DNA of 64,000 nt. Source: a virus. The stretch is taken from the IMG/VR virus record IMGVR_UViG_3300033402_000312, one strand, 5' to 3'. Positions 3,579-59,687 of the stretch are shown piece after piece. Each line of letters opens with the position of its first letter. Within the stretch, counting starts at the first letter, position 1. The translations under genes were made by a program, and so were the position numbers. The notes beneath the pieces were generated by a model. It had not been told where the DNA came from. It saw only the letters and a program-made list of their open reading frames with translations, and made no database searches.

Positions 3579-3666
3579 GGGGTAGATGGCACAATGGCGT
3601 GCCAGCAGACTGTAAATCTGCCGTCCCTTGCGGACACGGTAGGTCCGATCCCTACCTACCCCACCA
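3579..3666 (+). tRNA. tRNA-Tyr(GTA), class II
   Basis: Acceptor GGGGTAG/CTACCCC+A+CCA; anticodon arm GCAGA-CTGTAAA-TCTGC; long variable arm; T arm GTAGG-TCCGATC-CCTAC. Confidence 0.75.
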
Positions 3667-3684
3667 AGCTTTGGAGCATCAAAC

Positions 3685-3912
3685 ATGCAAGTGGTTCAGA
3701 CGCACCTGGTGAGGAAGACGGAGCACGGAGAAGTCCACACGATATGCTGGCTCGACGTAAAGCCGAACGTGAAGGTTGGCTCCGTGGTGTCCTTGGAAGA
3801 CTCGCCCGGCGAGTGGTGGACTGTGCTGTCCCAAGGCTTCGTGCAGGATTCCTCGCTGATCAACCGGAAATGGGGCCTAGACCTGCCGAAGTCGCAGCGC
3901 CTCGAAAGGTAA
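3685..3912 (+). CDS. hypothetical protein
   Basis: 75-aa ORF with balanced composition directly after tRNA-Tyr; preferred over ORF 3594..4169, which overlaps the tRNA. Confidence 0.4.
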   Translation: MQVVQTHLVRKTEHGEVHTICWLDVKPNVKVGSVVSLEDSPGEWWTVLSQGFVQDSSLINRKWGLDLPKSQRLER

Positions 3913-4170
3913 TCGAATCCGGCAGGGTCACGGAGTGCAGGCACTGCGGCACGAGGCACCCCACGTGGGCGAACGGCACGATTTGTTTCATGGCTTTCTT
4001 CTACATTTGGGAGCGCGACCTGCTCCACATGGCGAAGCAGGACGCAGGATGGAGGTCGGTGGCGCACAAGTTGGGGTTCATGGACGCTAAGATCGATGCG
4101 CCGTGGGCTTTCCCAGATGAAGGACGCTATATAGCGTACAGGCGGATAAAAGACGGTGAGTTTTTGTAAC

Positions 4171-4259
4171 GCGAGCGTGGCGGAATCGGCAGACGCGCAA
4201 CGTTGAGAACGTTGTGGGGTTTTTATCCCGTAGGAGTTCGAGTCTCCTCGTTCGCACCA
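4171..4259 (+). tRNA. tRNA-Leu(GAG), class II
   Basis: Acceptor GCGAGCG/CGTTCGC+A+CCA; D arm TGGCGGAATCGGCAGACGC; anticodon loop TTGAGAA; long variable arm; T loop GGAGTTCGAGTCTCC. Confidence 0.8.
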
Positions 4260-4335
4260 GATTTAAGTTGGGGCGGTGTTTGGCACGGATGCTTTATACA
4301 AGAGTAAACCCCGTGCCGTTGATGTCCCCCACTTT

Positions 4336-4422
4336 GCGCGGGTGGTGGAATTGGCAGACACGCGGGCCTCAGAAGCCCGTGGGGTAAAACCCGTGGAGGT
4401 TCAAATCCTCTTCCGCGCACCA
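4336..4422 (+). tRNA. tRNA-Leu(CAG), class II
   Basis: GCGCGGG...CCGCGC+A+CCA; anticodon arm CGGGC-CTCAGAA-GCCCG; variable arm hairpin; T loop GAGGTTCAAATCCTC. Confidence 0.8.
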
Positions 4423-4457
4423 AGATTCGGGCGGCTTCTGGGTCGCTCCCAGAAGTA

Positions 4458-4548
4458 GGAGATGTGGCGGAATTGGCAGACGCAGCGCCCTTGAACGGCT
4501 CTGAGTCTATTAAGACGGCTCGTGCGGGTTCGACTCCCGCCGTCTCCG
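4458..4548 (+). tRNA. tRNA-Ser(TGA), class II, Leu-type D arm, G73, no encoded CCA
   Basis: Acceptor GGAGATG/CGTCTCC+G; D arm identical to Leu genes (TGGCGGAATTGGCAGACGC); anticodon loop CTTGAAC with one C-T mismatch in the stem; long variable arm; T arm GCGGG-TTCGACT-CCCGC. Confidence 0.6.
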
Positions 4549-4571
4549 TCGCCCGGACGTATTAAGGTGAC

Positions 4572-4940
4572 ATGGCCAAGTTCGAAGATCATTGCCGCGA
4601 CTGCGAGCGCATCCTTGGGGGCAGGCGCGAGGATGTGAACCGCTGGATGGACGAGCTTTTTCGCCAGCATGGCCCAAGGCACCGCAAGTTTCGGCATTGC
4701 TGGCACGGCGTGTGCGAGGCAAGGAAGATTTTCGGAGCGGAGGGCGCGAAAGCGGCAATCATCCACATCGTTCGGGATTGCGGCGCTGTGCCCGACCAGC
4801 GCGTCTACGACGAAACGCAGCTTGGCATCGTGCTCGCGCCGGAGCATGCGACAGGCAGCGCGGACAACGCGGCGTTCGAAAAGTTTAGGATTGCCGTGGA
4901 AGAGGACTTTAAGAAAGCGGTTACGAAGGGGTGTTTGTAA
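4572..4940 (+). CDS. hypothetical protein
   Basis: 122-aa ORF between tRNA genes; protein-like composition; RBS-like AAGGTG upstream. Confidence 0.55.
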   Translation: MAKFEDHCRDCERILGGRREDVNRWMDELFRQHGPRHRKFRHCWHGVCEARKIFGAEGAKAAIIHIVRDCGAVPDQRVYDETQLGIVLAPEHATGSADNAAFEKFRIAVEEDFKKAVTKGCL

Positions 4941-5060
4941 GTGATCTGGAGAAAGATCAACGAATTTTGTTTTCGTCGTTATGGGACGCACCAGCAAGAC
5001 TGCTGGCCCATATACGCCCGGATAGTTTATGCGGTACTGACCTATCTGGTGTAGCAAAAT

Positions 5061-5147
5061 GCGGCTATGGCGGAACTGGCAGACGCACTAGCTTGAGGTG
5101 CTAGCGGTAGCGATACCGTGGAGGTTCGAGTCCTCTTAGCCGCACCA
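5061..5147 (+). tRNA. tRNA-Leu(GAG) second copy, class II
   Basis: GCGGCTA...TAGCCGC+A+CCA; anticodon arm CTAGC-TTGAGGT-GCTAG; T loop GAGGTTCGAGTCCTC. Confidence 0.75.
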
Positions 5148-5155
5148 AATTTGGG

Positions 5156-5228
5156 GGAATAGCATTGTGGAATGCGCCCCGGTTCCAAACCGGGGAGAAG
5201 GCGGTCCGACTCCGCTTCTATTTCGGCA
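5156..5228 (+). tRNA. tRNA-Trp(CCA)-like candidate, possibly degenerate
   Basis: Clean anticodon stem-loop CCCGG-TTCCAAA-CCGGG resembling E. coli tRNA-Trp; T arm GGCGG-TCCGACT-CCGCT; acceptor pairing imperfect. Confidence 0.3.
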
Positions 5229-5430
5229 GTTGCGTTGTTCCCGAGCTTGGCGTCCAAAAGCTGTCATGGAAAGACAGCCTGCCCGGCTTCGCGGTGAGCA
5301 GAGGGCGATACTTCCCCCACAAGTGAGGAAGCTCCGGCATGTTGCTGGTTCGACTCCAGCGCTGTAGCGAAGGGCAAGCCGTGTAGACGGCGCGATTCGC
5401 GGTCGAGACATGCCGACTTCCGCTAGATTT

Positions 5431-5515
5431 GCGACCGTGGCGGAACTGGCAGACGCGCATGGCTTAGAACCATGTGGAGCAGTCCGTGGGGGTTCGACTC
5501 CCTCCGGTCGCACCA
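5431..5515 (+). tRNA. tRNA-Leu(TAG), class II
   Basis: GCGACCG...CGGTCGC+A+CCA; anticodon arm CATGG-CTTAGAA-CCATG; T loop GGGGGTTCGACTCCCTC. Confidence 0.8.
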
Positions 5516-5520
5516 AGATT

Positions 5521-5606
5521 GCCGGGCTGGCGGAATTGGCAGACGCACTCGCCTCAAAAGCGAGCGGTTAACAGCCATGAGGGTTCGACTCCCTCGCCCG
5601 GTACCA
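5521..5606 (+). tRNA. tRNA-Leu(CAA), class II
   Basis: GCCGGGC...GCCCGGT+A+CCA; anticodon arm CTCGC-CTCAAAA-GCGAG; T loop GAGGGTTCGACTCCCTC. Confidence 0.8.
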
Positions 5607-5659
5607 AAATTAAAAGTTGGCATCATCTTTTTGTGGTAGTATTCGGGTAGGAGACTGCC

Positions 5660-5983
5660 ATGAAACCCACGAAAGTTTTAGCTTCAATCCTTCTGATCCT
5701 CTTCCTTGCTGCGCTGGCGGCGGCAGCCCAGAACTATACGGCGTTCTCGGTTGTGGGCGTGCAGCAGACCGCGCCCAATGTCTACACGGCGACGGTCAAT
5801 ACTGTTGTCAAGAACCCGACGAACACGATCCCCCCGGACGGCACCGTGCTGACCATCGCCACAGCGAACTGCACCCACGTGCCCGGCAGGAGCGGCGAGA
5901 ACGCCATCGTGTCGAACGGGCCGCTGGGGCGTGCTCTGTTGTTCGCGAACGGGCCGTCCTGCGCGATCACGGGCATAAAGTAA
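5660..5983 (+). CDS. secreted protein (signal peptide)
   Basis: RBS AGGAG 9 nt upstream; N-terminal MKPTKVLASILLILFLAALAAAAQ signal peptide; Thr/Asn/Val-rich mature part. Confidence 0.65.
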   Translation: MKPTKVLASILLILFLAALAAAAQNYTAFSVVGVQQTAPNVYTATVNTVVKNPTNTIPPDGTVLTIATANCTHVPGRSGENAIVSNGPLGRALLFANGPSCAITGIK

Positions 5984-6267
5984 GCTTGTAAACCCCCCTG
6001 TTTCAAGGTCTTACGGCTGGACGAAACTGCATCCCTGCCTGTATACTGTTGGTATGAGGACACCACAAAGACGAACCGTTGCGGGTGGAATTCCTCCGTC
6101 ACGGTGAGGGTCGTTGTCGAAGTCGGCAGCATGCCCGGCGACTTTTATAAGCCGGGGAGCGTGCGGACAGTCAACGCCTGTAACCTGTACAAGCGCCGTG
6201 CCAGCCCCGAGCGGAAATTCGCTCGAAAATAGTCCATCGTCGGGCACGGAAAGGGCATCAAATAGGT

Positions 6268-6606
6268 ATGGAAAAGCATCTCTACGAAATCCTTGTCCCC
6301 ACCGTGCGGAACGACGGCAGACCGATACACACGAGATTCCACAGGATTTGGGACAGGAAGGTCGAGGCGATCAGCAACGGGTTGACCATCCTCACGCCCG
6401 GCAAGGGCACGTGGGTCCACGAAGGCACGTCCATTCGCGAGCGCATGATCCCCGTGCGGATCATGTGCACGCGGGAGCAGATCGACCAGATCATCGACCT
6501 GACGCTTGAGTATTATTACGACCAACTCGCAGTCATGGCTTACAGGGTGAGCGACGAGATAATCCTGAAGCACCGGGCGGCGGCGAAAGGCGGGAAGAAT
6601 GTCTAG
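6268..6606 (+). CDS. hypothetical protein
   Basis: 112-aa ORF, protein-like composition. Confidence 0.55.
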   Translation: MEKHLYEILVPTVRNDGRPIHTRFHRIWDRKVEAISNGLTILTPGKGTWVHEGTSIRERMIPVRIMCTREQIDQIIDLTLEYYYDQLAVMAYRVSDEIILKHRAAAKGGKNV

Positions 6607-6713
6607 GCGGGGGGAGGGTCTCGGCATCTTCGGGGCGCTTGCAGTCGTGCTCATCCTCTTGGGCTTGATCGCGCTGCTTGCGAACTGCCTCGGCATTTTG
6701 CCCAGCCACTGAT

Positions 6714-6920
6714 ATGTCCAAATCTCCGAAGGCTAAACAACCTGAGTACAATCATTGGGACGAATTTGTGAAGTTCGTCAAGGCGCAAGCCATCCTGTCC
6801 AAAGAATTCCGGGAACAACTCATCCTCAAAATGGGCGGGGGGATGCAAGACGCCCATGAGCGCGGTATCCTAGAGGGAAAGCGTCGGGCTAAATTGGAAC
6901 TCGAAAGAAAAACCAAATGA
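6714..6920 (+). CDS. hypothetical small protein
   Basis: Internal ATG 6714 of ORF 6678..6920; stop overlaps next start (ATGA). Confidence 0.35.
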   Translation: MSKSPKAKQPEYNHWDEFVKFVKAQAILSKEFREQLILKMGGGMQDAHERGILEGKRRAKLELERKTK

Positions 6921-7264
6921 GAATCTTGATCGCTGATGACGAAAACAGTTTGCGCGAATTGCTTGCAGATTTTTTGATCGCTAAGGGTCATGAGGTCGTC
7001 TCCGCGAAAGACGGAGCGGAGGCACTCCGCATTTTCCTCAACGACGAGGGCGAATTCGACTATGTCATAACCGACTATCAGATGCCGCGCAAGAACGGCG
7101 TCGTGCTCATCATGGACATCCGCAAAGCAGTTCCGGGCCAGAAGTGCATCCTCGTCACCGGCGATCCGCCGCAACTCTCTAAGGCCGTCCGCGAGGACGC
7201 GGGCGAATTTCCCGTCTTGCGTAAGCCTTACGACCGCACGGAACTCTTAGGACTGCTCAAATAA
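6917..7264 (+). CDS. stand-alone response-regulator receiver (CheY-like REC) domain protein
   Basis: REC hallmarks: ADDE acidic pair, phospho-acceptor Asp in VITDYQMP, Thr in ILVTG, Lys in LRKPY; no output domain. Confidence 0.8.
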   Translation: MRILIADDENSLRELLADFLIAKGHEVVSAKDGAEALRIFLNDEGEFDYVITDYQMPRKNGVVLIMDIRKAVPGQKCILVTGDPPQLSKAVREDAGEFPVLRKPYDRTELLGLLK

Positions 7265-7324
7265 CCCTCTTCAGTTCCCTAGCTAAACGGCCGTAATTCC
7301 AAAATCCACCCCCTCGGGGTATTA

Positions 7325-8347
7325 TTGGGATATATGGCGAAACCCTATGGGAACCCTGTCGCGTGTGACGAGGCAGAGACTCCGAAGAGACAAACTGTTT
7401 CGGTTGGTGACGATCAAGACCAAGCGTACTACCATTGGTCAAAGCGCAACGGCCTCTACCGCCCCGTGGGGCACACGCAGGACGCCATCCCGGCTGGCAT
7501 CTACGAGATCGACAACGACAACTCCGGCTGGTTCCTGTCCAAGGTGAAGTTCCCGTCCGACACCCTGCTCCGGCTGCCGGGCATGCCCATCGACTACATC
7601 CTCAGCCAGATCGACACCTTCTGGATGCGGGAGGAGCTTTTCAAGCAGACCGGGCTTCTGCACAAGCGCGGCATCCTGATGTACGGCCCGGCGGGATGCG
7701 GCAAAACTTCGATCATCAGGCTTCTGTGCGACGACGTCGTCAACAAGCGCGACGGCATCGTCATCATGGTGACAAACTGCCGCCTCGCCGAGACCGCCCT
7801 CGGCGGAGTCCGCCAGATCGAGTCCCGCCGCCCGATCCTGACCATCATCGAGGACATCGAGACGTTCATGGGGTCGAGCGACGAGTCGTCCTCAGCCCGT
7901 GCGCTCCTGGCTCTCCTCGACGGCGAGACCCAGATCGACCACGTCGTCCACCTCGCGACGACCAACAAGCCCGACGTGCTGGAAGACCGCATCTCCAAGC
8001 GCCCCGGACGGTTCGACCTTGTCATCGGCCTGAACCACCCGGTCGCAGACGCCCGCAAGGCGTACCTTGTCAACCTCCTGCAAGACCATGTGCCCGCAGA
8101 GGAGCTAGAAGTCATGGTCAGCGAGACGGAAGGTCTCGGGCTTGCCCACCTGCGCGAGCTAGTCGCGGCGTCGTACTGCCTCGGCCTCGACCGCAAGGAA
8201 ACCCTCGCCCGCTTGAAGACGAACTTCAAGAAGAAGCTCAAATCCATCGAAGGCAGGGGCAACGTCATGGGCTTCACGGTCAACTTTCCAGAAGAGGCGG
8301 AAGACGGAAGGTTGAAGCTCGATGACAGCGGTGATTCCCATGCCTGA
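7325..8347 (+). CDS. classical AAA ATPase (N-domain + AAA module)
   Basis: Walker A GILMYGPAGCGKTS; Walker B ILTIIEDIE; second region of homology ATTNKPDVLEDRISKRPGRFD (R-x-G-R-F-D). Confidence 0.85.
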   Translation: MGYMAKPYGNPVACDEAETPKRQTVSVGDDQDQAYYHWSKRNGLYRPVGHTQDAIPAGIYEIDNDNSGWFLSKVKFPSDTLLRLPGMPIDYILSQIDTFWMREELFKQTGLLHKRGILMYGPAGCGKTSIIRLLCDDVVNKRDGIVIMVTNCRLAETALGGVRQIESRRPILTIIEDIETFMGSSDESSSARALLALLDGETQIDHVVHLATTNKPDVLEDRISKRPGRFDLVIGLNHPVADARKAYLVNLLQDHVPAEELEVMVSETEGLGLAHLRELVAASYCLGLDRKETLARLKTNFKKKLKSIEGRGNVMGFTVNFPEEAEDGRLKLDDSGDSHA

Positions 8348-9395
8348 TACAAGTGAGTTCACACTGCTCTATGAGCGCTTGGATTCGGCAGACTCAGACC
8401 AAGGCCTATCGTATCCGAAAAATCCGCCTCGCGCACAGTCTGACGAAAAGGTCGCATCCGTGGATGGCACCCAGCTTCTTTCGTCCATGACGAAAAACCA
8501 GTGGGCGGTGCTGCCCGACGACACGTTCACTGCCATCGGCGCTACGGTCTCGCACCTGCCCCCGGCGATCTACACGCTTTCCTCGGACGGCGGCGGCGTG
8601 GTCTACTACAATAAGACGAAAGTCCTCACGGACAAGCTCATCGAACTGGACGACAGCGCTGCCATACGGGTCATCGCGGGGATCGAGACGTTCTGGGAGT
8701 CCAAGGCAAAGTTCGACCGCTTTGGCATCCTGTTCAAGCGCGGCATCCTCTTGTGGGGCCCTGCGGGATCGGGCAAGACAGCCACGGTCAACATGCTGAT
8801 GAACGACCTCGTGGGGCGCGGCGGCATGGTCGTCATCGTGCAAAAACCTTCAGTCGCCATCAAGGGACTCCATGATCTTCGCCGCATCGAGCCAGACCGC
8901 CCCATCATCATCGTTTTGGAAGACATCGAGGAGATGATCGACAACCACGGCGAGCACGGATTGTTGGGCCTGCTTGACGGGGAGCACCAAGTCTCCAACG
9001 TGGTCGTGCTGGCGACGACCAACTTCCCGGAACGCCTCGGCGAGCGCATCATCAACCGCCCCAGCCGCTTTGACGAGATCATCCTCGTGGACATGCCGTC
9101 CGCCAAAGCCCGCTACCGCTACCTGAAGCACGTGCTGAAGGACACCGTGCCGGAGGAGGAGCTTCAGCAGTGGGTCGAGGCGACGGACAAGCTGTCCATC
9201 GCGCACTTGCGCGAATTGATCGTCGCCACGCAATGCCTCGGCCGCCCGTATGCCGAGGTCGTGGACAGGCTGAAGCGGATGAGGATCAAGCCAAACAGCG
9301 ACAAGCTCCGCAAGGCGGAGCCGGGCTTTGACAGCCCGAACGCAGCGGAAGCGGGGAACGCGATTCGCGCAGCGCAGCAAGCAGCGGGGGGATAG
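8322..9395 (+). CDS. classical AAA ATPase, paralog of previous
   Basis: Walker A GILLWGPAGSGKTA; Walker B IIIVLEDIEE; SRH ATTNFPERLGERIINRPSRFD; 26-nt overlap with upstream AAA gene. Confidence 0.85.
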   Translation: MTAVIPMPDTSEFTLLYERLDSADSDQGLSYPKNPPRAQSDEKVASVDGTQLLSSMTKNQWAVLPDDTFTAIGATVSHLPPAIYTLSSDGGGVVYYNKTKVLTDKLIELDDSAAIRVIAGIETFWESKAKFDRFGILFKRGILLWGPAGSGKTATVNMLMNDLVGRGGMVVIVQKPSVAIKGLHDLRRIEPDRPIIIVLEDIEEMIDNHGEHGLLGLLDGEHQVSNVVVLATTNFPERLGERIINRPSRFDEIILVDMPSAKARYRYLKHVLKDTVPEEELQQWVEATDKLSIAHLRELIVATQCLGRPYAEVVDRLKRMRIKPNSDKLRKAEPGFDSPNAAEAGNAIRAAQQAAGG

Positions 9396-9401
9396 AGTCA
9401 A

Positions 9402-9746
9402 ATGGGACTCGATTTTGTCGGCTCAGACGCAAACTGGTCTTACACTGGCTTCAATCGGTTTCGGACGATGCTTGCAAAGGAAGTCGGCATCGACTTGGAC
9501 AGCATGGAAGGGTTCGGCGGTAGCGTTAAGTGGTCTACGCTGCCGAAAGACCCGATCCATTTCCTTCTCAACCACTCGGATTGCGACGGCCACATAACGG
9601 CGAAGCGGTGCGCAAAGATAGCGCCGCGACTGTTGGAGCTTGTGGCAAAGTGGCCCGACGATATTTATGACAAGACCCAAGCGCTACTTCTAGCCGAAGG
9701 GATGAAGGCATGCGCCCAAAAGGGGAAACCCTTGGAGTTTTGCTAG
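9402..9746 (+). CDS. hypothetical protein
   Basis: 114-aa ORF. Confidence 0.45.
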   Translation: MGLDFVGSDANWSYTGFNRFRTMLAKEVGIDLDSMEGFGGSVKWSTLPKDPIHFLLNHSDCDGHITAKRCAKIAPRLLELVAKWPDDIYDKTQALLLAEGMKACAQKGKPLEFC

Positions 9747-9747
9747 C

Positions 9748-10278
9748 ATGGAACGGATCGACCATTTCGCTTACGAGCATGACTTTTTGTCGAACTTCTA
9801 TCCTGTGGCGATTGTCATGGAGGGCGCTGAGTATGGTTCTGTCGAGCACGCATACCAAGCCGCCAAGGTCCTCAATCCTGAGAAGCGCCGCATCCTCACG
9901 CTGGACTTCAACCCGAACCTGACAGCCGGGCAAGCCAAGAAGGTGGGGCGAAACCTTGACTTGCGCGACGATTGGGACGAAGTCAAGGCTCTGATCATGC
10001 GCGAACTCCTGTTCCAAAAGTTTGGGAATCCCGCCTTAAGAGCTAGGCTGCTAGCCACAGGCACCGCCGAACTGGTTGAAGGAAATTATTGGGAAGACCG
10101 CCATTGGGGCGTGTGCTACGGCGGATTGCCGACTGGATTTGATGGACGCAAGTGTAAAAAATGGCCGCACGATCCAGCGGGCGACAACAAGCTGGGACAA
10201 TTGCTGATGGAAATCCGCTTTGAACTTCTTTCTCAGAAGGAATCATGGGGAAGCTCAAACTGGACAAAAACACCTTAG
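9748..10278 (+). CDS. NADAR domain protein (YbiA-like ADP-ribose N-glycosidase family)
   Basis: Motifs FLSNFYP, SVEHAYQAAK, DW..VK..M..LL.KF, LLATG.AELVEG...D..WG, N.LGQLLMEIR align to YbiA/DUF1768. Confidence 0.8.
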   Translation: MERIDHFAYEHDFLSNFYPVAIVMEGAEYGSVEHAYQAAKVLNPEKRRILTLDFNPNLTAGQAKKVGRNLDLRDDWDEVKALIMRELLFQKFGNPALRARLLATGTAELVEGNYWEDRHWGVCYGGLPTGFDGRKCKKWPHDPAGDNKLGQLLMEIRFELLSQKESWGSSNWTKTP

Positions 10279-10517
10279 TTGCTGCGTGCAAAGCCGTTTG
10301 CGTTTTTTGTAAAGAGGGCGTTCCGTACAACGCCGAAAAAGAGCAACATGCAAACCTTTACCATTGTAAGGCTTGGACGATTCGATCTCTGTTTTTGAAA
10401 GCCGAGTCCAGACGCGAGTTCAAGCGCCGCGAAATTGGGGATGAAGCCGTTGACTACCAAGCCGAGCAAGCGGTCGAAAAAACTGGCGATAGCGTTGAGC
10501 GAGCTTTGCACGTATGA
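10245..10517 (+). CDS. hypothetical Cys-containing small protein
   Basis: 90-aa ORF overlapping NADAR 3' end. Confidence 0.35.
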   Translation: MGKLKLDKNTLVAACKAVCVFCKEGVPYNAEKEQHANLYHCKAWTIRSLFLKAESRREFKRREIGDEAVDYQAEQAVEKTGDSVERALHV

Positions 10518-10665
10518 TGAGATGGCCGCTTACGTTCTCGCTTTGCTTGCGGCAGAGCGGGAGCGGGCTTTCAAAGACATCTACGAGTTCGCACTGAGCC
10601 GCCACGGCAAGGGCGGCTATGTCCATTACAGTGAGCTAGAAGCCCTCAAGGAGCCAAGATCATGA
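10435..10665 (+). CDS. hypothetical protein (start uncertain)
   Basis: 76-aa ORF; real start may be internal ATG ~10528 (MAAYVLALL...). Confidence 0.3.
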   Translation: MGMKPLTTKPSKRSKKLAIALSELCTYDEMAAYVLALLAAERERAFKDIYEFALSRHGKGGYVHYSELEALKEPRS

Positions 10666-11102
10666 AAGATATTTGGGTCTGTAAAATCGGCGAAACGGAA
10701 AGAGACAATCTTCCAGATGGGGCTGATTTTCCCATGAGGTTGGTTGTTGCCGAGGCTTATCGACAAATTACGGGACACGATCCAGATTTTTTCTGGTTGG
10801 GGCGGGGAATTGACCGAAGCCGAGCGAATTGTAGCAAACGAGAAGCGGGGAAAGCCATGAGCGACGTCGGCATGACGGAGTTCGAGAGGTTCGCCATGGA
10901 TCACAACGAGCATGCGCACTGCGCTGGGTGCGGGGGCTGCATGCTCGACCCGCGCATCAAGGAATTGCAGGCAGCCCCCGTTTGGTGTATGGGCTGCGTC
11001 AAGGCCATCCATGCCAAGATGCCTGTCGGTGCCCCGCGCCCGTGGGCAGGCGGGGTGATGTTCTGCAACCCCGGAAATTTCTTCTTGAAAATAACCTCTT
11101 GA
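10662..11102 (+). CDS. hypothetical protein
   Basis: 146-aa ORF, ATGA overlap with upstream ORF; Cys/His cluster HCAGCGGCM. Confidence 0.5.
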   Translation: MKDIWVCKIGETERDNLPDGADFPMRLVVAEAYRQITGHDPDFFWLGRGIDRSRANCSKREAGKAMSDVGMTEFERFAMDHNEHAHCAGCGGCMLDPRIKELQAAPVWCMGCVKAIHAKMPVGAPRPWAGGVMFCNPGNFFLKITS

Positions 11103-11127
11103 CAGTTTTCTGTTTTCCTGGTACTAT
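11099..11127 (+). promoter_or_regulatory. sigma70-type promoter P2 (TTGACA-17-TACTAT) upstream of tRNA array 2
   Basis: TTGACA 11099-11104, 17-nt spacer, TACTAT 11122-11127; same extended motif CTTGACAGTTTTCTG as P1. Confidence 0.7.
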
Positions 11128-11174
11128 ATGTGAGTACATGCGGCGGTCTTTGCCGCTATAGGTGCTGCCTTCAA

Positions 11175-11246
11175 ATGAACACGATGCGACCATTTCCGGG
11201 TTTTCGACCGTGCATGCCCAGCATGCGCGGGGTCGCAGGTCTCTGA
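11175..11246 (+). CDS. putative leader peptide (23 aa, MNTMRPFPGFRPCMPSMRGVAGL) of tRNA array 2
   Basis: 4 Pro codons (CCA, CCG, CCG, CCC) and 4 AUG matching downstream Pro(UGG), Pro(CGG) x2, Pro(GGG) and CAU tRNAs; 2 UUU; weak RBS. Confidence 0.4.
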   Translation: MNTMRPFPGFRPCMPSMRGVAGL

Positions 11247-11292
11247 CTGACGGAGACAGCCCCGCGCTGCACGGCGTCGGGGCTTTGTGGGC
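11226..11292 (+). terminator. alternative-hairpin region: CGCGGGG / AGCCCCGCG / CGGGGCT + TTTGTGGG (candidate attenuator)
   Basis: AGCCCCGCG (11258-11266) can pair either with upstream CGCGGGG (11226-11232, inside leader ORF) or with downstream CGGGGCT (11278-11284), which is followed by a T-rich tract. Confidence 0.4.
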
Positions 11293-11359
11293 TGTGAAAT
11301 TCCCAACAAAGAAGATGTTTTAGCCGCCCCCGACAGGTTGTGATGTGTTTGTGATGTGT

Positions 11360-11447
11360 CGGAGCGTAGGCGGGTAAATGGAAGCCCTCCTGCTTTGGAA
11401 GCAGGTGCCTGCGGGCCTTGGGAGTTCGAGTCTCCTCGCTCCGACCA
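11360..11447 (+). tRNA. class II-type tRNA with UGG anticodon and tRNA-Pro acceptor identity (C1:G72, A73)
   Basis: CGGAGCG...CGCTCCG+A+CCA; anticodon arm CCTGC-TTTGGAA-GCAGG; variable-arm hairpin GCC-TGCG-GGC; T arm GGAG-TTCGAGT-CTCC; 88 nt. Confidence 0.55.
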
Positions 11448-11472
11448 AGTTTCATTCGCGAATAGCGAATGT

Positions 11473-11551
11473 CAGGGCGTAGCTCAGTCTGGTTTAGAGT
11501 ACTCGCGTCGGAAGCGAGGGGTCGTGAGTTCGAATCTCACCGCCCTGACCA
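11473..11551 (+). tRNA. tRNA-Pro(CGG)-like (A37)
   Basis: CAGGGCG...CGCCCTG+A+CCA (C1:G72, A73); D arm GCTC-AGTCTGGTTTA-GAGT; anticodon arm CTCGC-GTCGGAA-GCGAG; T arm GTGAG-TTCGAAT-CTCAC. Confidence 0.65.
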
Positions 11552-11563
11552 GTATTATGATAA

Positions 11564-11902
11564 ATGATTGAATCAGAACGAGTTTTTCGTCGTGCCCGGC
11601 AACGAAAGTGGTATCGTGAACGTGGACGTGCCAAACAGATTAAGAAGGCAACCGCCCGAAAGAAGCGGATCATTGCTTGGTATCGAGCGTACAAAAGTAC
11701 GTTGAAATGCTCTCGGTGCTCGGAGAGGCGTTCAGCCGCCTTGGATCACCATCACCGGGACCCAAAAATGAAGGAGTTTAACATTGCCTTTGCTGTAGGG
11801 AATGGTTACTCCATTAAACGGTTGCTAAAAGAAATCGCGAAATGCGATGTCTTGTGCGCTAATTGCCACAGAGTTGAAGAGGCTGAAAGGCGCAAAGTTT
11901 AG
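11564..11902 (+). CDS. HNH homing endonuclease (inside tRNA array)
   Basis: HNH core LDHHHRDPKMKEFN...CDVLCANCHR; basic N-terminus; inserted between two tRNA-Pro genes. Confidence 0.75.
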   Translation: MIESERVFRRARQRKWYRERGRAKQIKKATARKKRIIAWYRAYKSTLKCSRCSERRSAALDHHHRDPKMKEFNIAFAVGNGYSIKRLLKEIAKCDVLCANCHRVEEAERRKV

Positions 11903-11907
11903 GTTTT

Positions 11908-11984
11908 CGGGTTGTAGCGCAGCCTGGTAGCGCGTACGCTTGGGGTGCGTAAGGTCGCGGGTCCGAATCCCGCCAACCCGACCA
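11908..11984 (+). tRNA. tRNA-Pro(GGG)
   Basis: CGGGTTG TAGCGCAGCCTGGTAGCGC...CAACCCG+A+CCA; anticodon arm TACGC-TTGGGGT-GCGTA; matches E. coli proL architecture. Confidence 0.8.
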
Positions 11985-12112
11985 AGTTCAGGCTGAAGTA
12001 GGTACATCGGTAACTACAGGCAGCCGAGAGACAGTCCGAGTCCCGCTGAGCGTCCCGCCGAGCCTACGCGCACCAATCGGTCAAGCGTACAGGGACGAGC
12101 AGCAGCGAGTTT

Positions 12113-12184
12113 TGCGGGGAAGTGAATAGGATCACGAGAGCCTCATAAGCTCTAAATCCGGTTCGAGTCCGGCGTCCGCAACCA
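12113..12184 (+). tRNA. tRNA-Met(CAT)-like, short D loop, imperfect T stem
   Basis: TGCGGGG...GTCCGCA+A+CCA; D arm GTGA-ATAGGA-TCAC; anticodon arm AGAGC-CTCATAA-GCTCT; T region CCGG-TTCGAGT-CCGG; 72 nt. Confidence 0.45.
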
Positions 12185-12333
12185 ATTTGAGGGCTAAATA
12201 TCGGTTGCCCGAGTGCGGAACATGGTTTCGAAAGTGTAAAAAGCAGATGCGCTTAGCCATGGCGGCTCCTAGTGCGTAAAGGGCGGACACGCCCGAGGCA
12301 AAACTGCCTCGCATACCGAAGAGCCACAATTTT

Positions 12334-12936
12334 ATGGAACAGTACCCAGAGATACCCGGCGCGAAGAAGGCTCCCCTCGGGGAGAGGTGCATCGCGTTCT
12401 ACAAGTACGACGGCTCCAACCTCCGGTGGGAATGGAGCAAGAAGCGCGGCTGGCACAAGTTCGGCACGCGGACGGAGCTTTTCGCCCCGGAGCACCCGCT
12501 GTGGGGGCAGGCACTCCCCCTTTGGCGCGGGATCGCGCACGACGTCAAGGATCGCATTTACGCGAGCGACTGGCGGTTCCGCAACATACAGCGGATCACG
12601 GCGTTCACCGAGTTCTTCGGGCCTTCGAGCTTCGCCGGGACGCATGACGAGAAGGAGCCGAAGGAGCTTAGGCTCATCGACGTCTGGCTGTACAAGCACG
12701 GCAGGATGCCGCCCCGGTGGTTCGTGGACACGTTCAGCGACGCGTCGTACGCGGCGCAGGTGGTCTACGAGGGCAACCTGAGCACGGAGTTCATCCGCGA
12801 CGTGCGGGCGGGGAAGTACCCGGTGTGGGAAGGCGTCGTGGCGAAGGGCGACGACTGGATGGCGAAGATCAAGACCGAGGCGTACATGCTGAAGCTCAAG
12901 GAGGTCTTCGGCCTGGACTGGGAAGGGTTCGCGTAA
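12334..12936 (+). CDS. minimal ATP-dependent RNA/DNA ligase-like nucleotidyltransferase (Rnl2-type NTase domain only)
   Basis: Motif I KYDGSN (K24), motif III FTEFFG, motif IV WEGVVAKGD, motif V AKIKTEAY; ~200 aa, no C-terminal domain. Confidence 0.65.
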   Translation: MEQYPEIPGAKKAPLGERCIAFYKYDGSNLRWEWSKKRGWHKFGTRTELFAPEHPLWGQALPLWRGIAHDVKDRIYASDWRFRNIQRITAFTEFFGPSSFAGTHDEKEPKELRLIDVWLYKHGRMPPRWFVDTFSDASYAAQVVYEGNLSTEFIRDVRAGKYPVWEGVVAKGDDWMAKIKTEAYMLKLKEVFGLDWEGFA

Positions 12937-12940
12937 TAAA

Positions 12941-13017
12941 CGGGGCGTAGCGCAGCCTGGTAGCGCGTCTGCTTCGGGAGCAGAAGGCCGTTGGTTCGAA
13001 TCCAATCGCCCCGACCA
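12941..13017 (+). tRNA. tRNA-Pro(CGG)
   Basis: CGGGGCG TAGCGCAGCCTGGTAGCGC...CGCCCCG+A+CCA; anticodon arm TCTGC-TTCGGGA-GCAGA, identical loop to E. coli proK. Confidence 0.85.
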
Positions 13018-13041
13018 ATATTATGCATAGCGAGGTGCATT

Positions 13042-13702
13042 ATGATTCTGGAAATAAGAGCGGCGGAAGGCGGCGAGGACGCGAGGCTCCTCGTCGAGGA
13101 CCAGACGACGATCTACGCCCGCGTGGCGTCGCGGAGGGGTCTTTGAGTTCGAGGTCGTGGAGCAGCGCCAGGGCTTCGCGGTCCTGAGGATCACGGGGCC
13201 GGGCGCGAAGGAGGCGTTCGCGAATGAGTCGGGAGGTCATCGCTGGCAGAGGGTCCCGCCGACTGAGAAGCGCGGCAGGGTGCAGACCTCGACGGTCACC
13301 GTCGCGGTGTTCGACGAACCCGAGGCTTCGGAGTTCAAGGTCAGAGACGCCGACCTCGCATGGGAGACCATGCGGAGCGGGGGCAAGGGCGGGCAGAACG
13401 TGAACAAGGTCGAGACTGCCGTCCGGCTGACCCACAGGCCGACCGGGCTGACAGTGCGGTGCGAGTCCGAGCGGTCGCAGTCGCGCAACAGGCAGACAGC
13501 GCTCGCCACCCTGACCGCCCGGCTGGCTGCGGCGCGGCGGGAGCAGCAGCAGGACGCGCAGGCGACCGACCGGAGGCGGCAGATCGGCACGGGGCAGCGC
13601 GGGGACAAGCGCCGGACGATCCGCGAAAGGGACGGGGTCGTGACAGACCACGTCCTGAACCGGAAATGGCGATACGCGGACTATGTGCGCGGGCTGTGGT
13701 AA
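13042..13702 (+). CDS. N-terminally truncated class I peptide-chain release factor homolog (domains 2-4) with programmed +1 frameshift at 13141-13146
   Basis: Frame 1: ATG 13042 (RBS GAGGTG), [34 protein letters not shown] then CTT TGA; frame 2 continues [13 protein letters not shown]...[28 protein letters not shown]...[38 protein letters not shown] (PxT-like PPT and GGQ motifs, RF1-like); GGAGG 3 nt upstream of CUU UGA as in prfB. Confidence 0.7.
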
Positions 13703-13712
13703 GATAGCTTAT

Positions 13713-13788
13713 GGCGGTGTAGCTCAGTTGGAGAGCGCGGGTCTCATAAACCCGAGGTCGCTGGTTCGTTCCCCAGCCACCGCTACCA
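13713..13788 (+). tRNA. tRNA with CAT anticodon (Met elongator or Ile2/lysidine type)
   Basis: GGCGGTG TAGCTCAGTTGGAGAGC...CACCGCT+A+CCA; anticodon arm CGGGT-CTCATAA-ACCCG; T arm GGTCGCTGGTTCGTTCCCCAGC resembles ileX. Confidence 0.75.
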
Positions 13789-13804
13789 AATTTGGGGAAG
13801 AAAT

Positions 13805-13966
13805 ATGTCTCATCCTGTAGTTTTTGATTGTCCACACTGTGGTCGGAGTTTAGAAGCATCATCAGAAACAGTAGTTCGCTGTCCACATTGTAGGGTAGCC
13901 ATCGATATTCTGACAGACGGAGTGAAGATAGACCCATTTGCAGAAAAATTTCATATTGGCGAGTGA
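13805..13966 (+). CDS. small zinc-ribbon protein (53 aa)
   Basis: ATG 13805; two CPHC pairs (FDCPHCGRS...VRCPHCRVA); start of an AT-rich island containing the next HNH gene. Confidence 0.4.
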   Translation: MSHPVVFDCPHCGRSLEASSETVVRCPHCRVAIDILTDGVKIDPFAEKFHIGE

Positions 13967-13999
13967 GGTCTAGTACTACAGTCAGTGTGACTAAGTTAC

Positions 14000-14548
14000 T
14001 TGACTTTCAAGAAGCATAAGTGGAGAATACCACTTATGCGACAAACAGTTTCAGTCACATGCAATTTTTGTGGCAATCAACTAGATAAACTTGCGAAGTC
14101 CGTAAAATGGGCGAGAGCTAACGGGCAAAAAAATTTTTACTGTAACATGGTCTGTATGCAGTCTGGCCGAACCTTAGGTCGGGTAAAACCGGGTACGGCT
14201 TTGCGTAGTCTTTTATGTCGGTATAAACAGACTGCAAGACGGAGAAAAGTTTCGTTTACGTTAACGGACACTGAATTTGGGAGCTTGGTTACCCAGTCAT
14301 GCTACTATTGCGGCGATGCTCCAGCACAAGTAGCAAGAGCCAAATCTGGCGAGACCTTAAAGTATAACGGGATAGACCGGGTTAATAACTTGTTCGGGTA
14401 TTCTACTGACAACAGCGTGAGTTGTTGCGGTACATGCAATCGTTGGAAATCATCCATGTCATCGGAGGATTTCTTGGCTCAAATCAGGAAAATTTTTGAG
14501 AGGACAACTATGGTCACCAACCTTAGCAAGACCGCCCATACGGCGTAA
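14000..14548 (+). CDS. HNH homing endonuclease
   Basis: CYYCGDAP...YNGIDRVNNLFGYSTDNSVSCCGTCNRWKS HNH core; N-terminal CxxC; low-GC island. Confidence 0.8.
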   Translation: MTFKKHKWRIPLMRQTVSVTCNFCGNQLDKLAKSVKWARANGQKNFYCNMVCMQSGRTLGRVKPGTALRSLLCRYKQTARRRKVSFTLTDTEFGSLVTQSCYYCGDAPAQVARAKSGETLKYNGIDRVNNLFGYSTDNSVSCCGTCNRWKSSMSSEDFLAQIRKIFERTTMVTNLSKTAHTA

Positions 14549-14577
14549 CGTGTGGGCCGGTCACAAGGAGAACCAAA

Positions 14578-15240
14578 ATGTTGTCAAGGACTAAAAAGGC
14601 GGCTGCGCTGTACTTCGAGCCGCTCAAGAAACTGCTGGCTGCTGTGCGGTCGGTGGTGCAGTTCCGTGTGAAGCGCTGGCATGTCGCCATGCGCGGGTGG
14701 AATGAGAAAGACGTTCGCGTCCTGATCTGCCTTGAAGACTCGATCTGGTACTGGGTCGTGTTGGAGTGGCTGTTCTGGGACGTCCAGACGCATGTCTGCC
14801 ACTGCATGGACTGCGTCAAGCTCCCGAAGTTCGTCCGCAACTGGAAGCGGCACTGGGACAAGGACGATCCCGAGTACTTCGCCACGTGGGAGGACTGGTA
14901 CGGCGACAGCTTTCACTCGATCTGGCACTGCCATGTGTGCGATCCCTTGCTTCAGTGGGTGTGGAGGCACAAGGATTTCCACAAGGCGTGGCCGCAGTGG
15001 GAACTGACGTTCGACGAAGCCCGCAAGACCTTCGCGCACGACCCGAAAATCTACGAGTGGGCTGAGAAGGAACTTGCGGAGCACAAGCAGTACGACGCCG
15101 AGAAGCTCGACGAGATTCGCAAGTCCTACAAGGCTGGCGGCCTGACCCGCGAGCAGGCGCTTGAAAAGCTGGGGTGGCACTTCGGGGGCGAGAATCTTGA
15201 AATTCTGCTTGACGAAAAAGAAGGACTAACAGTATCTTAA
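14578..15240 (+). CDS. hypothetical Trp/His/Cys-rich protein
   Basis: RBS AAGGAG 8 nt upstream; 220-aa ORF. Confidence 0.6.
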   Translation: MLSRTKKAAALYFEPLKKLLAAVRSVVQFRVKRWHVAMRGWNEKDVRVLICLEDSIWYWVVLEWLFWDVQTHVCHCMDCVKLPKFVRNWKRHWDKDDPEYFATWEDWYGDSFHSIWHCHVCDPLLQWVWRHKDFHKAWPQWELTFDEARKTFAHDPKIYEWAEKELAEHKQYDAEKLDEIRKSYKAGGLTREQALEKLGWHFGGENLEILLDEKEGLTVS

Positions 15241-15485
15241 TAGATGCACGTGGGACCCCGACCGACCTGACGAGGCAGCTTGTACGAGAGGTGGCGGGCA
15301 GTGCGCATCAACCTGGCACCGAGGCTCATAACGACTGAACAGCCGGAGCCGATGACAACGGGGTCCCACAACTTTTTCAGTCCCAGCCCTGCCTGACTGG
15401 GTGGTTGCGGGGGAGATGTTCCAGCCCATACGATGACTGGATGGCGGGGACGCAATGTTTGGCGGAGACGACTAAATTTTTCTGA

Positions 15486-15562
15486 TGCGGGGTGGAGCAG
15501 TCTGGTAGCTCGCAACGCTCATAACGTTGAGGTCGCCGGTTCAAATCCGGCCCCCGCTTCCA
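15486..15562 (+). tRNA. initiator-like tRNA-Met(CAT)
   Basis: Body nearly identical to E. coli tRNA-fMet (TGGAGCAGTCTGGTAGCTC, GGTCGCCGGTTCAAATCCGGCCCCCGC); unpaired 1:72 (T/T); CCA encoded; anticodon stem CAACG/CGTTG lacks the three G:C pairs. Confidence 0.75.
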
Positions 15563-15578
15563 GTTTATAGCCCGAGGG

Positions 15579-15818
15579 GTGGAACCTGAGACGGCAATTC
15601 CGCCCCTCCATTCTTTGAAAGGGCGCATGGGACAGACTTCGTCAAGCTCCAAAACGACAGCCACCGAACTGGCGAAGATGCTGATGGAGCACCCCGACTG
15701 GGAAGTCGAGGTCGAGGGTTACGCTTGGTTCGGGATGAACGAGCCTACGAAGTATACGTCGTCGCCCGAAGTGGACGAACTGCCCGAGCAGAAAAAGTTT
15801 CTCATCTACACAGTCTGA
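15579..15818 (+). CDS. hypothetical small protein (start may be 15627)
   Basis: 79-aa ORF directly after tRNA; acidic C-terminal half. Confidence 0.35.
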   Translation: MEPETAIPPLHSLKGRMGQTSSSSKTTATELAKMLMEHPDWEVEVEGYAWFGMNEPTKYTSSPEVDELPEQKKFLIYTV

Positions 15819-16090
15819 GTTCAACGCCCGTAGGCTTTGAGCCGAGATGCAGAAGGGCTGGCAGAGCCATACGACCTGATGCAGGACGGGAAAGCTCTGC
15901 AAGTAATTTGTGAAGAGATTCTGCAAATGAGGCGGCATCTCATTTGCAGGGGAGCCGGAGCAAATGCGCGAGGACATGCCTCACCAGCGCGTTCAGACGG
16001 ACACCGGACCGGGTGAAAGCCGTGGCAAGACTGTTTGAGTCTCCGGCGCAAGCTTCGCAGCGGTGTAATGTACGGATACTTCACATAAAC

Positions 16091-16119
16091 CAGTAGGTTG
16101 TGGGTTCGAATCCCACCTT
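16091..16119 (+). tRNA. tRNA 3' fragment (variable loop + T arm + acceptor 3' strand)
   Basis: GGTTGTGGGTTCGAATCCCACCTTCCGAG has perfect T arm GTGGG-TTCGAAT-CCCAC but no matching 5' half upstream. Confidence 0.4.
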
Positions 16120-16669
16120 CCGAGAAATCGGATGTAGCTCAACTGGAAGAGCAACAGGTCAGAAAAATTCCGTGCAGCTTTTTGTTCCCTGCGATTTCAA
16201 GACTGATTTTTTCGTGCCGAGCCGCCCGTGCGTGGCCACGCTAAGGCGCGGGAGAATCCATAAGGTGGCTGTTGTACAGGCCCGCTCGTACGAAGGGCGA
16301 TCTTTCTAGCTAGAGGTTCGTACGAGCGAATACATTTCGGTGCTTCAAGCCGTTCTCGGACGTAAACCGAGTGGAGCGGAACCTCGCACGTTTCCCGGTT
16401 CGTCAAAAACCGGGTGGATTTCTATGACGAAAGCGACCGCGTGCAGCCTCGTTGCTTATGCCTCGGCGTTCGCTGCTGGCGCGACTTTCTGGTACGGAAC
16501 CTTGGCGTCGAAGCCCAAGTTCTATTATCTCGCGGTAGCGTTCTTCTTGTTTGCCGCGAAGTTCCGTTTTCTGGCTTCCGCGCATCTAAAAGGAAAGATT
16601 CAATGAAGCTGACGTCCCAACTCGACTCGTTTAGCGGCCCCTCCGGGGGCCTGCGGTAACGTGTGTCAA

Positions 16670-16745
16670 GGGGACGTAGCTGATGCGGTCTTAGCGCCTG
16701 CCTGAAGAGCAGGAGATGTTGGTTCGACTCCGACCGTCCCCGCCA
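16670..16745 (+). tRNA. tRNA-Phe(GAA)
   Basis: GGGGACG...CGTCCCC+G+CCA; anticodon arm CCTGC-CTGAAGA-GCAGG; T arm GTTGG-TTCGACT-CCGAC. Confidence 0.8.
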
Positions 16746-59144: not shown

Positions 59145-59687
59145 ATGAAGGAAATTCCTCTCACCAAAGGTTATATTGCCCTTGTTGACGATGCTGATTT
59201 CGAGCGGGTTGTAGCCGCTGGGCCATGGACGGCAGCTAAACGCATAGGACACGGTGCTCGCACTGTCTATGCTCAAAGGCACACTCTTGGTACGAAAGGA
59301 AGAAAGACCATTTATCTTCATCGTTTCATTCTTGAACTTCCCATCGCACGATTTCCCAAAGTTGATCATTGGAACCATAACGGATTGGATTGCCGAAGGC
59401 GCAATTTGCGAATCACTAATGATTTCGGAAACCAGCACAATCGACAAAAGTGCCTGAGCATTGAAGGGCGACCTACCACATCCAAATTTAAGGGTGTGTC
59501 GTGGTGGAAAAGCAATCGAGCTTGGGTAGCTCGTATTGCAGACGGTAAAGGCGGACGAATTTTTCTCGGCAACTTTTCTTGTGAAGAAACTGCCGCTCAT
59601 GCTTACGATGCTAAAGCTGTCGAATTGTTTGGTGAGTTTGCCCACCTTAATTTTCCTCATCACTGGAACTCCTGCACCCCAAGGTAG
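59145..59687 (+). CDS. HNH homing endonuclease with AP2-like DNA-binding domain
   Basis: HRFILE...VDHWNHNGLDCRRRNLRITN...NQHN HNH core; C-terminal KGVSWWKSNRAWVARI...GNFSCEETAAHAYD AP2-like; low GC; 3' end overlaps the end of the convergent giant gene. Confidence 0.75.
   Translation: MKEIPLTKGYIALVDDADFERVVAAGPWTAAKRIGHGARTVYAQRHTLGTKGRKTIYLHRFILELPIARFPKVDHWNHNGLDCRRRNLRITNDFGNQHNRQKCLSIEGRPTTSKFKGVSWWKSNRAWVARIADGKGGRIFLGNFSCEETAAHAYDAKAVELFGEFAHLNFPHHWNSCTPR

Follow-up and report, generated by a model that had tools for sequence, protein, structure and literature searches.

Mitochondrial Bcs1 is an AAA translocase of the folded Rieske protein. Its critical pore-loop residues are not conserved, and its folded client is moved by concerted contraction of a heptameric ring (structure review, PMC7994207). 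"BCS1 orthologs" have also been recorded in all three jumbo-phage groups, where a membrane-proximal role in head assembly was guessed for them (Iyer et al. 2021, PMC7824862). Here we analyze 64,000 nt of a roughly 450-kb soil phage (IMGVR_UViG_3300033402_000312; this whole stretch is "the window" below), in which the gene for a stand-alone receiver (REC) is followed by genes for two AAA ATPases (AAA1 and AAA2) and, somewhat farther downstream, for a NADAR-domain protein. AAA1 and AAA2 are Bcs1-like in their ATPase core, yet they fall outside the Bcs1 family proper, and with their homologs they define a large and previously undelimited soluble family with a Bcs1-type core and two ancient subfamilies. 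REC has, by its sequence, the complete active-site set of a canonical receiver.

On the reading that we favor, and which we hold with evenly balanced confidence, REC, AAA1, and AAA2 serve distinct accessory functions and have been passed on side by side in a collinear clade of huge phages, the ATPases being non-threading remodelers capable of acting solo and REC a true phospho-acceptor. They would then represent three accessory genes in a long co-directional nonstructural block and not one dedicated machine. As soluble ring ATPases, AAA1 and AAA2 would combine an intact nucleotide site and Arg fingers acting between subunits with a Walker B of E-D order and pore loops free of aromatics, and each may bind a folded client via its small N-terminal beta-domain or the central cavity, remodeling or releasing it through nucleotide-driven ring movements instead of threading. 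Since many phages have only one of the two subfamilies, we infer that each ATPase can work as a homo-oligomer. The phosphate on REC would probably come from a histidine kinase of the host or from acetyl phosphate, and AAA1 as its output is an unproven proposition.

Likeness of the ATPases to Bcs1

Both ATPases match the Pfam AAA family (PF00004; E 6.6e-13 for AAA1 and 2.6e-12 for AAA2), as well as, far below cut-off, the models of PAN, Cdc48, and FtsH, and both have the features of the classical AAA clade, namely Walker A, an acidic Walker B, a sensor-1 Asn, and two Arg fingers (Table 1). They are 40% identical over 285 amino acids (aa), with differing N-terminal tails. Across an alignment of 229 homologs the invariant positions are GPxGxGKT, E200-D201, N234 (of TTN), R246 and R249 (of RPxRFD), and LLxLLDGExQ. 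A preliminary description of this DNA, made from its letters, had listed Walker A, Walker B, and RPGRFD motifs; the first stands, as does RPGRFD in AAA1 (it is RPSRFD in AAA2), but the order of the Walker B acids is E-D, instead of D-E, in every one of the 229 homologs. The same description had placed the ATPases in the FtsH/p97/PAN clade, but their nearest structural relative is Bcs1 (PDB 6u1y, 6ukp).

The Bcs1 chain sequence (6u1y_A), fetched from PDB with a BCS1L segment as bait, reads SLVLLEDVDAAF and has the same E-D Walker B (LLEDVD, compared with VLEDIE). Bcs1 and the phage proteins also share an equal Walker A-to-B spacing, the absence of an aromatic pore loop 1, the sensor-1 Asn, and the two Arg fingers. 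When the phage family profile was aligned with this chain by hhalign, the probability was 99% with 31% identity over 118 columns, and single-residue gaps were the only ones between Walker A and Walker B. For full-length Bcs1 (6ukp_A) the aligned part comprises 212 residues, no more than the 218 of the AAA-only chain.

In the 229 homologs a stretch of only about 20 residues, none of them aromatic, leads from beta-2 to Walker B, and the region of pore loop 1 reads VQKPSVAIKGLHD in AAA2 (173-185) and VTNCRLAETALGG in AAA1 (146-158). The aromatic-hydrophobic-Gly motif of pore loop 1, which serves in threading, is absent from both proteins, the family consensus has no aromatic there, and HMMER alignment to Afg2 and p97 requires extra residues to be inserted at each of the two pore-loop positions. 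Modeled with AlphaFold2 (40-sequence alignment; predicted local distance difference test, pLDDT, 83.9; predicted template modeling score, pTM, 0.78), AAA2 adopts a standard AAA fold, with beta-2 (169-172) passing nearly straight into a helix (176-189) and about three residues between them. Truncated, aromatic-free pore loops of the Bcs1 kind therefore argue against a threading unfoldase.

The phage proteins differ from Bcs1 in lacking its N-terminal transmembrane helix, being phage-encoded and predicted to be soluble, in having as their N-terminal domain a small beta-unit of about 45 residues, and in being shorter, by about 11 residues, from Walker B to the LDG motif. Pfam BCS1_N found no match in AAA1 or AAA2 at E <= 0.01, the N-domain by itself not having been searched by fold. 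In the AAA2 model a low-confidence N-terminal tail precedes a confident four-strand beta-unit (61-99). The N-domain of about 120 aa that had been proposed for each ATPase is reduced accordingly: it consists of a poorly conserved tail modeled at low confidence, then a small conserved beta-domain (about 60-100 in AAA2), and then the usual helices before Walker A.

In some AAA1 orthologs an intein lies between IVHLA and TTNKP, just before sensor-1, at a site equivalent to ~7957/7958 of the window. Its first residue is Cys, its last two are His-Asn, and Thr comes next; its size is about 153 aa in one ortholog (P0192) and about 270 aa in another (L103, 7875-9800), the latter presumably with a homing endonuclease. 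Inteins at the sensor-1 site suggest that the ATPase gene matters to the phage.

The best structural matches of the ATPases among the predicted structures of viral proteins in BFVD are AAA proteins of a crAss-like phage and of the jumbo phages pEa_SNUABM_47 and Atu_ph07, together with "BCS1" proteins of giant viruses; these jumbo-phage and giant-virus matches are different enough to share just 17-22% identity. The BCS1 proteins reported from jumbo phages (PMC7824862) are likewise phage-encoded Bcs1-like AAA ATPases, a likeness that is one of description, the paper giving no accessions. The preliminary description had considered that the genes might turn out to belong to a well-known phage module, and this is borne out insofar as BCS1-like AAA proteins were already on record in jumbo phages, but the comparison is by description and concerns proteins without a demonstrated function.

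If AAA1 and AAA2 were virion-assembly chaperones, holding or translocating folded proteins in membrane-proximal head assembly as proposed for the jumbo-phage BCS1 orthologs (PMC7824862), this would be consistent with their Bcs1-like fold and with the BFVD matches to the AAA proteins of Atu_ph07 and pEa_SNUABM_47. Yet neither protein contains a hydrophobic segment (the maximum 19-residue Kyte-Doolittle mean is near 1.2, at 1.22 in AAA1 and 1.15 in AAA2, inside the ATPase core in both cases) or a Bcs1-specific domain, and the genes sit among replication, NAD-salvage, and small early-type open reading frames (ORFs), not beside structural genes. A role in virion assembly is not suggested by these gene contexts, and we count it among the less likely readings and, taken by itself, as unlikely.

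Membership in the IetA/IteA or bacterial TRIP13 groups was considered and rejected, the matches being short and local, round the P-loop or lid only (PADLOC IetA, E 4e-10; NCBIfam IteA, 28 bits with the cut-off at 510). No partner gene of such defense systems, whether the IetS protease or HORMA with a cyclase, was found near AAA1 or AAA2.

Two ancient subfamilies and an optional second ATPase

The family is large. There are 351 confirmed stretches in IMG/VR, and metagenomic homologs number >1,100 for AAA2 and >700 for AAA1; the phage contigs on which the family occurs range from about 30 kb to 460 kb. The only catalogued phages with relatives covering most of the query are LR756500, LR756508, and LR756511, which are huge phages with one copy each, and Xanthomonas phage phiXF1, whose gene is annotated "YjoB" and is the sole match of this coverage from a cultured phage (29-30% identity). 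We fetched 124 family-bearing loci from IMG/VR and metagenomes, which clustering at 90% identity reduces to 89 groups. Of these, 4 have two AAA genes and 6 have REC within 5 kb, all within the window's own clade, and about 80 dereplicated loci have a single gene of one or the other subfamily. A scan of 185,579 species genomes returned 23 loci, every one of them in a metagenome-assembled genome (MAG) or metagenome bin, the closest being from Acidobacteriota. In none of these 23 does a REC gene adjoin the ATPase; in one (L146) a REC-containing gene lies about 2 kb off on the opposite strand.

In a neighbor-joining tree, AAA1 and AAA2 lie across the deepest split of the family, and other phages contain single-copy relatives of each at about 60% identity, compared with 40% between the two. 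The tree and these identities rule out a recent tandem duplication as the origin of the pair.

Within the huge-phage clade, AAA1 is present in all nine sampled genomes, in several arrangements. The window and three relatives (L009, L011, L095) have the order REC-AAA1-AAA2-x-NADAR, where x is a small ORF that varies. The order is REC-AAA1-NADAR, with AAA2 missing, in L097, in which the AAA1 and NADAR reading frames overlap, and in L098/99. A 463-kb contig (L101) has AAA1-NADAR and neither REC nor AAA2, and L032, which is the same as L100, has AAA1-AAA2 and no REC. NADAR is the most stable neighbor of AAA1 in the clade, lying within 5 kb (<=5 kb) in seven of eight dereplicated groups and, in the absence of AAA2, overlapping AAA1 directly. 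Judged by these orders and by the tree, AAA2 is an optional extra, from a separate subfamily, between AAA1 and NADAR. In L032 the place of REC upstream of AAA1 is taken by an ORF of 154 aa (6343-6807 of that locus) with a weak match to the DnaJ central domain, the CXXCXGXG zinc finger, at E 1.3e-4, below the Pfam cut-off.

These patterns bear directly on the proposal, made in the preliminary description, that AAA1 and AAA2 form an obligate hetero-hexameric threading unfoldase, in the manner of Pex1/Pex6 or Yta10/Yta12. As in those systems, two diverged AAA genes are adjacent here and both encode the full set of ATPase motifs; their differing N-terminal tails would suit such a complex, as would the 26-nt overlap of the two genes in the window and their spacing of 2-3 nt in L011, L095, and L032. 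Unlike the subunits of Pex1/Pex6 and Yta10/Yta12, however, AAA1 and AAA2 are not obliged to co-occur. AAA1 is found without AAA2 in L097, L098/99, and L101, both subfamilies are single-copy elsewhere, the two are not recent paralogs but lie across the deepest split, an 80-aa ORF separates them in L009, and their pore loops are truncated and free of aromatics. The hetero-hexameric unfoldase is therefore among the less likely readings, and we consider it decidedly unlikely. Given the deep split, the single-copy relatives, and the sister genomes lacking REC or AAA2, neither ATPase would need the other, or REC, for its function.

Clustering of the neighbors within 5 kb at 92 loci brought out no conserved partner gene of the single-copy members. 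The most frequent neighbor was NADAR, at 12 loci before dereplication, and those that recur outside the clade are a DnaB-like helicase, a gp32-like single-stranded DNA-binding protein, a late-transcription coactivator domain, NAMPT, Nudix, and NADAR. The surroundings of the family are replication, early, or NAD-related genes, rather than structural modules. Genes of an NAD-related or counter-defense type are often close to single-copy members: NAMPT and a Nudix gene lie near them in 4 dereplicated groups (among L005, L014-L019, L021, L023, L013, L040-L042), NADAR lies near a single-copy member in the L040 group, and a protein with an Acb2/Tad1 hairpin is encoded in L013, observations for which no background frequency was estimated.

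A canonical receiver

REC scores 65.3 bits (E 6.6e-18) on the Pfam receiver model (PF00072, Response_reg), whose cut-off is 30.2, and covers positions 1-109 of the 111 in the profile; its best PDB match is 3jte (E 2e-14), followed by YycF, FleR, CpxR, NtrC1, and CheY. A database search yielded 65 orthologs, all of about 115 aa, from the same phage group and 54-100% identical. D53 and K103 are present in 65 of 65 and D8 in 64 of 65; position 7 holds either D or E, and position 81 either S or T. The catalytic Asp, whose loss would have spoken against a functional receiver, is retained, and REC could accept phosphate from host donors, in agreement with the earlier suggestion that it could tap host phosphorelay signaling. 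No HisKA, HATPase_c, or Hpt domain is present among the precomputed Pfam annotations of the window or in L009, L011, and L095.

Phage-encoded receivers are unusual, as had been supposed. A tblastn search of a phage catalogue found canonical receivers in 55 of 50,697 records; several of the 55 are bacterial assemblies, and the annotated matches are mostly DNA-binding response regulators.

The "cRec" proteins of jumbo phages are described as Rec-like, as never found with a histidine kinase, and as associated with NADAR, Macro, and Nudix genes (PMC7824862, PMC9503650). The site of this divergent Rec is described as metal-independent and as having two aspartates, and cRec is reported from up to 18% of jumbo phages (Iyer et al. 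2021). If REC were an enzyme of this type, it would act with NADAR on cyclic-phosphate or ADP-ribose derivatives and would not be a signaling receiver, and its distance of 2.5 kb from NADAR, with the ATPases in between, and the lack of a kinase nearby would agree with this. Against it stand the 65 bits on the canonical Pfam model and the retention of D/E-D, D, S/T, and K-P, which depart from cRec as that domain is described, and also the frequency of receivers, since the 55 tblastn matches are mostly canonical response regulators whereas cRec occurs in up to 18% of jumbo phages. This too belongs with the less likely readings, and we judge it very improbable.

The orthologs vary unevenly. From beta4-alpha4 to beta5 the receiver is nearly invariant in all 65 (G/A82-D83-P84-P85, G96, F98, K103-P104-Y105), while helix alpha-1 varies at positions 17, 18, 21, and 22. 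Such a pattern would fit a conserved output partner and variable phosphodonors.

Linkage or shared ancestry

Such a partner could be AAA1. If REC gates a remodeler, phosphorylated REC would bind AAA1, and AAA2 where present, and switch the assembly of the ring, its ATPase activity, or the delivery of clients; the timing of the ATPase would then follow a phosphorylation signal from the host, with NADAR possibly in the same counter-defense or takeover unit. The invariant output face and the variable alpha-1 would fit a partner encoded by the phage itself, the spacer between REC and AAA1 is 36-69 nt or one small ORF in the seven of nine clade genomes where they adjoin, and the best NCBIfam likenesses of REC include CpdR, RssB, and NtrC-type receivers, all far below cut-offs (for the equivalogs CpdR and RssB, 54.5 bits against 180 and 43.7 against 329). 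AAA1 persists without REC in L101 and L032, however, and REC is beside the ATPase in none of the ~80 loci outside the clade, nor in MAG loci L136-L145 (33-54% identity). Adjacency of REC and AAA1, being confined to one collinear clade, counts as a single evolutionary observation. We regard gating by REC as doubtful, though worth entertaining.

Several points nevertheless weigh against our preferred account of separate accessory functions. REC has stayed directly upstream of AAA1 in seven of nine clade genomes despite divergence of REC to 54% identity, and AAA1 and AAA2 overlap or abut in four of the five genomes with both; spacing this tight between REC, AAA1, and AAA2 is typical of genes that function together. 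The clade genomes are broadly collinear, so that functional linkage is inseparable from shared ancestry in this sample. The 64 kb inspected belong to a genome of roughly 450 kb, so a kinase encoded elsewhere by the phage is possible.

Gene layout and genome setting

The three reading frames called in the preliminary description, one receiver and two ATPases, are real, as is the overlap between the ATPase genes (Table 1). Two details of the proposed layout do not hold. Translational coupling of REC to the ATPases had been claimed, but REC and AAA1 are separated by 69 nt (to the ATG of AAA1) or 60 nt (to its TTG), and REC is not translationally coupled to AAA1 because of this gap of 69 nt; the ATG of REC instead overlaps the stop codon (TGA) of a small upstream ORF, as ATGA at 6917-6920. 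The block was also said to lie directly upstream of NADAR, but a 114-aa ORF intervenes.

Table 1. Features of the receiver/ATPase block and of its surroundings, in window coordinates
Feature	Position	Strand	Product or remark
ORF112	6268..6606	+	112 aa; ferredoxin-like fold
Small upstream ORF	6714..6920	+	68 aa from ATG 6714; 80 aa from TTG 6678
REC	6917..7264	+	115 aa; stand-alone receiver
REC acidic pocket	6932-6943		D7-D8
REC phospho-acceptor	7070-7087		D53 inside TDYQMP
REC T81	7151-7171		
REC K103-P104	7217-7231		
AAA1	7334 (ATG) or 7325 (TTG)..8347	+	337/340 aa; Bcs1-like core
AAA1 Walker A	7685-7708		GPAGCGKT
AAA1 Walker B	7844-7861		IIEDIE
AAA1 sensor-1	7955-7966		TTN
AAA1 Arg fingers	8000-8017		RPGRFD
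AAA1/AAA2 overlap	8322-8347		26 nt
AAA2	8322..9395	+	357 aa; second Bcs1-like AAA ATPase
AAA2 Walker A	8757-8780		GPAGSGKT
AAA2 Walker B	8913-8930		VLEDIE
AAA2 sensor-1	9012-9023		TTN
AAA2 RPSRFD	9057-9074		
114-aa ORF	9402..9746	+	92 aa if from ATG 9468; between AAA2 and NADAR
NADAR-domain protein	9748..10278	+	176 aa; Pfam PF08719, E 6.3e-23
tRNA genes (sixteen)	3579-16745	+	clustered, small ORFs interspersed
Release-factor-like gene	13157-13702		truncated; domains PCRF and RF-1
Very large ORF	20828-23461		877 aa; no Pfam domain on record
Very large ORF	26681-32239		1852 aa; no Pfam domain on record
Very large ORF	59660-64000	-	>1446 aa; no Pfam domain on record

The small upstream ORF has no match in Pfam or PHROG searches, and an ORF of 66-80 aa is called at the equivalent place in L009, L011, and L095. 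The 114-aa ORF matches phrog_11026 (E 4.6e-10) and has no Pfam match; it is not conserved in the clade, where relatives carry different small ORFs at this place. The presence of ORF112 tracks that of REC across the clade, membership of a module not being shown by this. ORF112 was considered as a partner of REC (Hpt or kinase) and finds no support in this role, its model being a generic ferredoxin-like fold.

Every large ORF from about 480 to 24,000 is on the + strand, and co-orientation is thus not specific to REC, AAA1, and AAA2. In a site scan of 5600-11400, promoter-like and terminator-like sites were not above chance, and a nucleotide search of 6000-11000 against the 50,697 phage records gave zero matches. 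The window is phage-like in content, with 16 transfer RNAs (tRNAs), PolA, a 5'-3' exonuclease, a clamp-loader subunit, an RNA ligase, and a release-factor-like gene, and orthologs come from viral contigs in IMG/VR and from metagenome contigs 447-465 kb long.

The tRNA genes comprise six for Leu, four for Pro, three for Met(CAT), and one each for Tyr, Ser, Trp, and Phe, and a TyrRS is encoded nearby in relative L009. Proteins of the window (P0001, P0121, P0241) also occur on a JGI contig of 894,233 bp, compared with 447-465 kb for the related contigs; 894 kb is about 2 x 447 kb, and this contig may therefore be a concatemer or duplicated assembly, not a genome of nearly 0.9 Mb. The closest relatives borne by MAGs (L136-L139, 50-54% identity) were binned with Acidobacteriota (Acidobacteriaceae, Bryobacterales), and one AAA1 ortholog (P0177) is named Candidatus Acidiferrum sp. 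The binning and this name suggest Acidobacteriota as the hosts of this huge-phage group.

Relation to known systems

In its parts, the locus is familiar: receiver domains are well known, and phage Bcs1-like AAA ATPases had been recorded before, never with a characterization. Our literature search found no characterized phage Bcs1-like ATPase, no description of REC with an AAA ATPase in phages, and none of the arrangement REC + AAA + AAA + NADAR, which agrees with the statement in the preliminary description that the gene combination was not recognizable as a described system. What is new, besides the delimitation of the ATPase family, is a clade-restricted arrangement that joins these ATPases with a canonical receiver and NADAR, as a functional unit still unproven. 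At present this amounts to a useful annotation and a lead, not to a new system.

Its significance lies in a large ATPase family that has a Bcs1-type core without the membrane parts of Bcs1. A soluble Bcs1-like machine would be a non-threading remodeler of a kind unstudied in bacteria or phages. An intact, conserved receiver in a huge phage means, in addition, that such phages can carry parts of two-component signaling. It is conceivable, if somewhat more tentative still than gating as such, that a canonical receiver was recruited as the trans phospho-switch of a soluble Bcs1-like remodeler, with AAA2 as an add-on and NADAR co-expressed; in this clade the phage would then use a signal from a host kinase or from acetyl phosphate to time the remodeling of a folded host or defense protein. 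If REC controls AAA1, this would be a new viral route for coupling a phage's program to host physiology. It would also be the earliest known case of a two-component output, encoded by a phage, that works on an AAA machine, and would give the phage Bcs1-like family its first assigned function.

Three further bacterial systems invite comparison. YjoB of Bacillus subtilis (PDB 7w42) is, like AAA1 and AAA2, a soluble ATPase with a single AAA domain of the classical clade, but it is longer (425 aa in the PDB entry), it has a larger N-terminal region, given that the matched AAA region begins near residue 197, and its structural score is below that of Bcs1. CpdR and RssB are response regulators that act, under control by phosphorylation, as adaptors of ClpXP, a logic that gating by REC would follow; CpdR is also a single-domain protein. 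The likeness of REC to them is one of generic receiver similarity (E 1e-14 for CpdR and 1.7e-11 for RssB), and the locus differs in that its ATPase is Bcs1-like, not ClpX, and the link between receiver and ATPase putative. In NtrC1 and DctD, as would be the case in gating by REC, a receiver governs the assembly of an AAA+ ring, and NtrC-type receivers are among the best matches of REC; there, however, one polypeptide contains both the receiver, acting in cis, and a sigma-54 activator AAA+ domain of another clade, whereas here receiver and ATPase are encoded by separate genes and the ATPase belongs to the classical clade.

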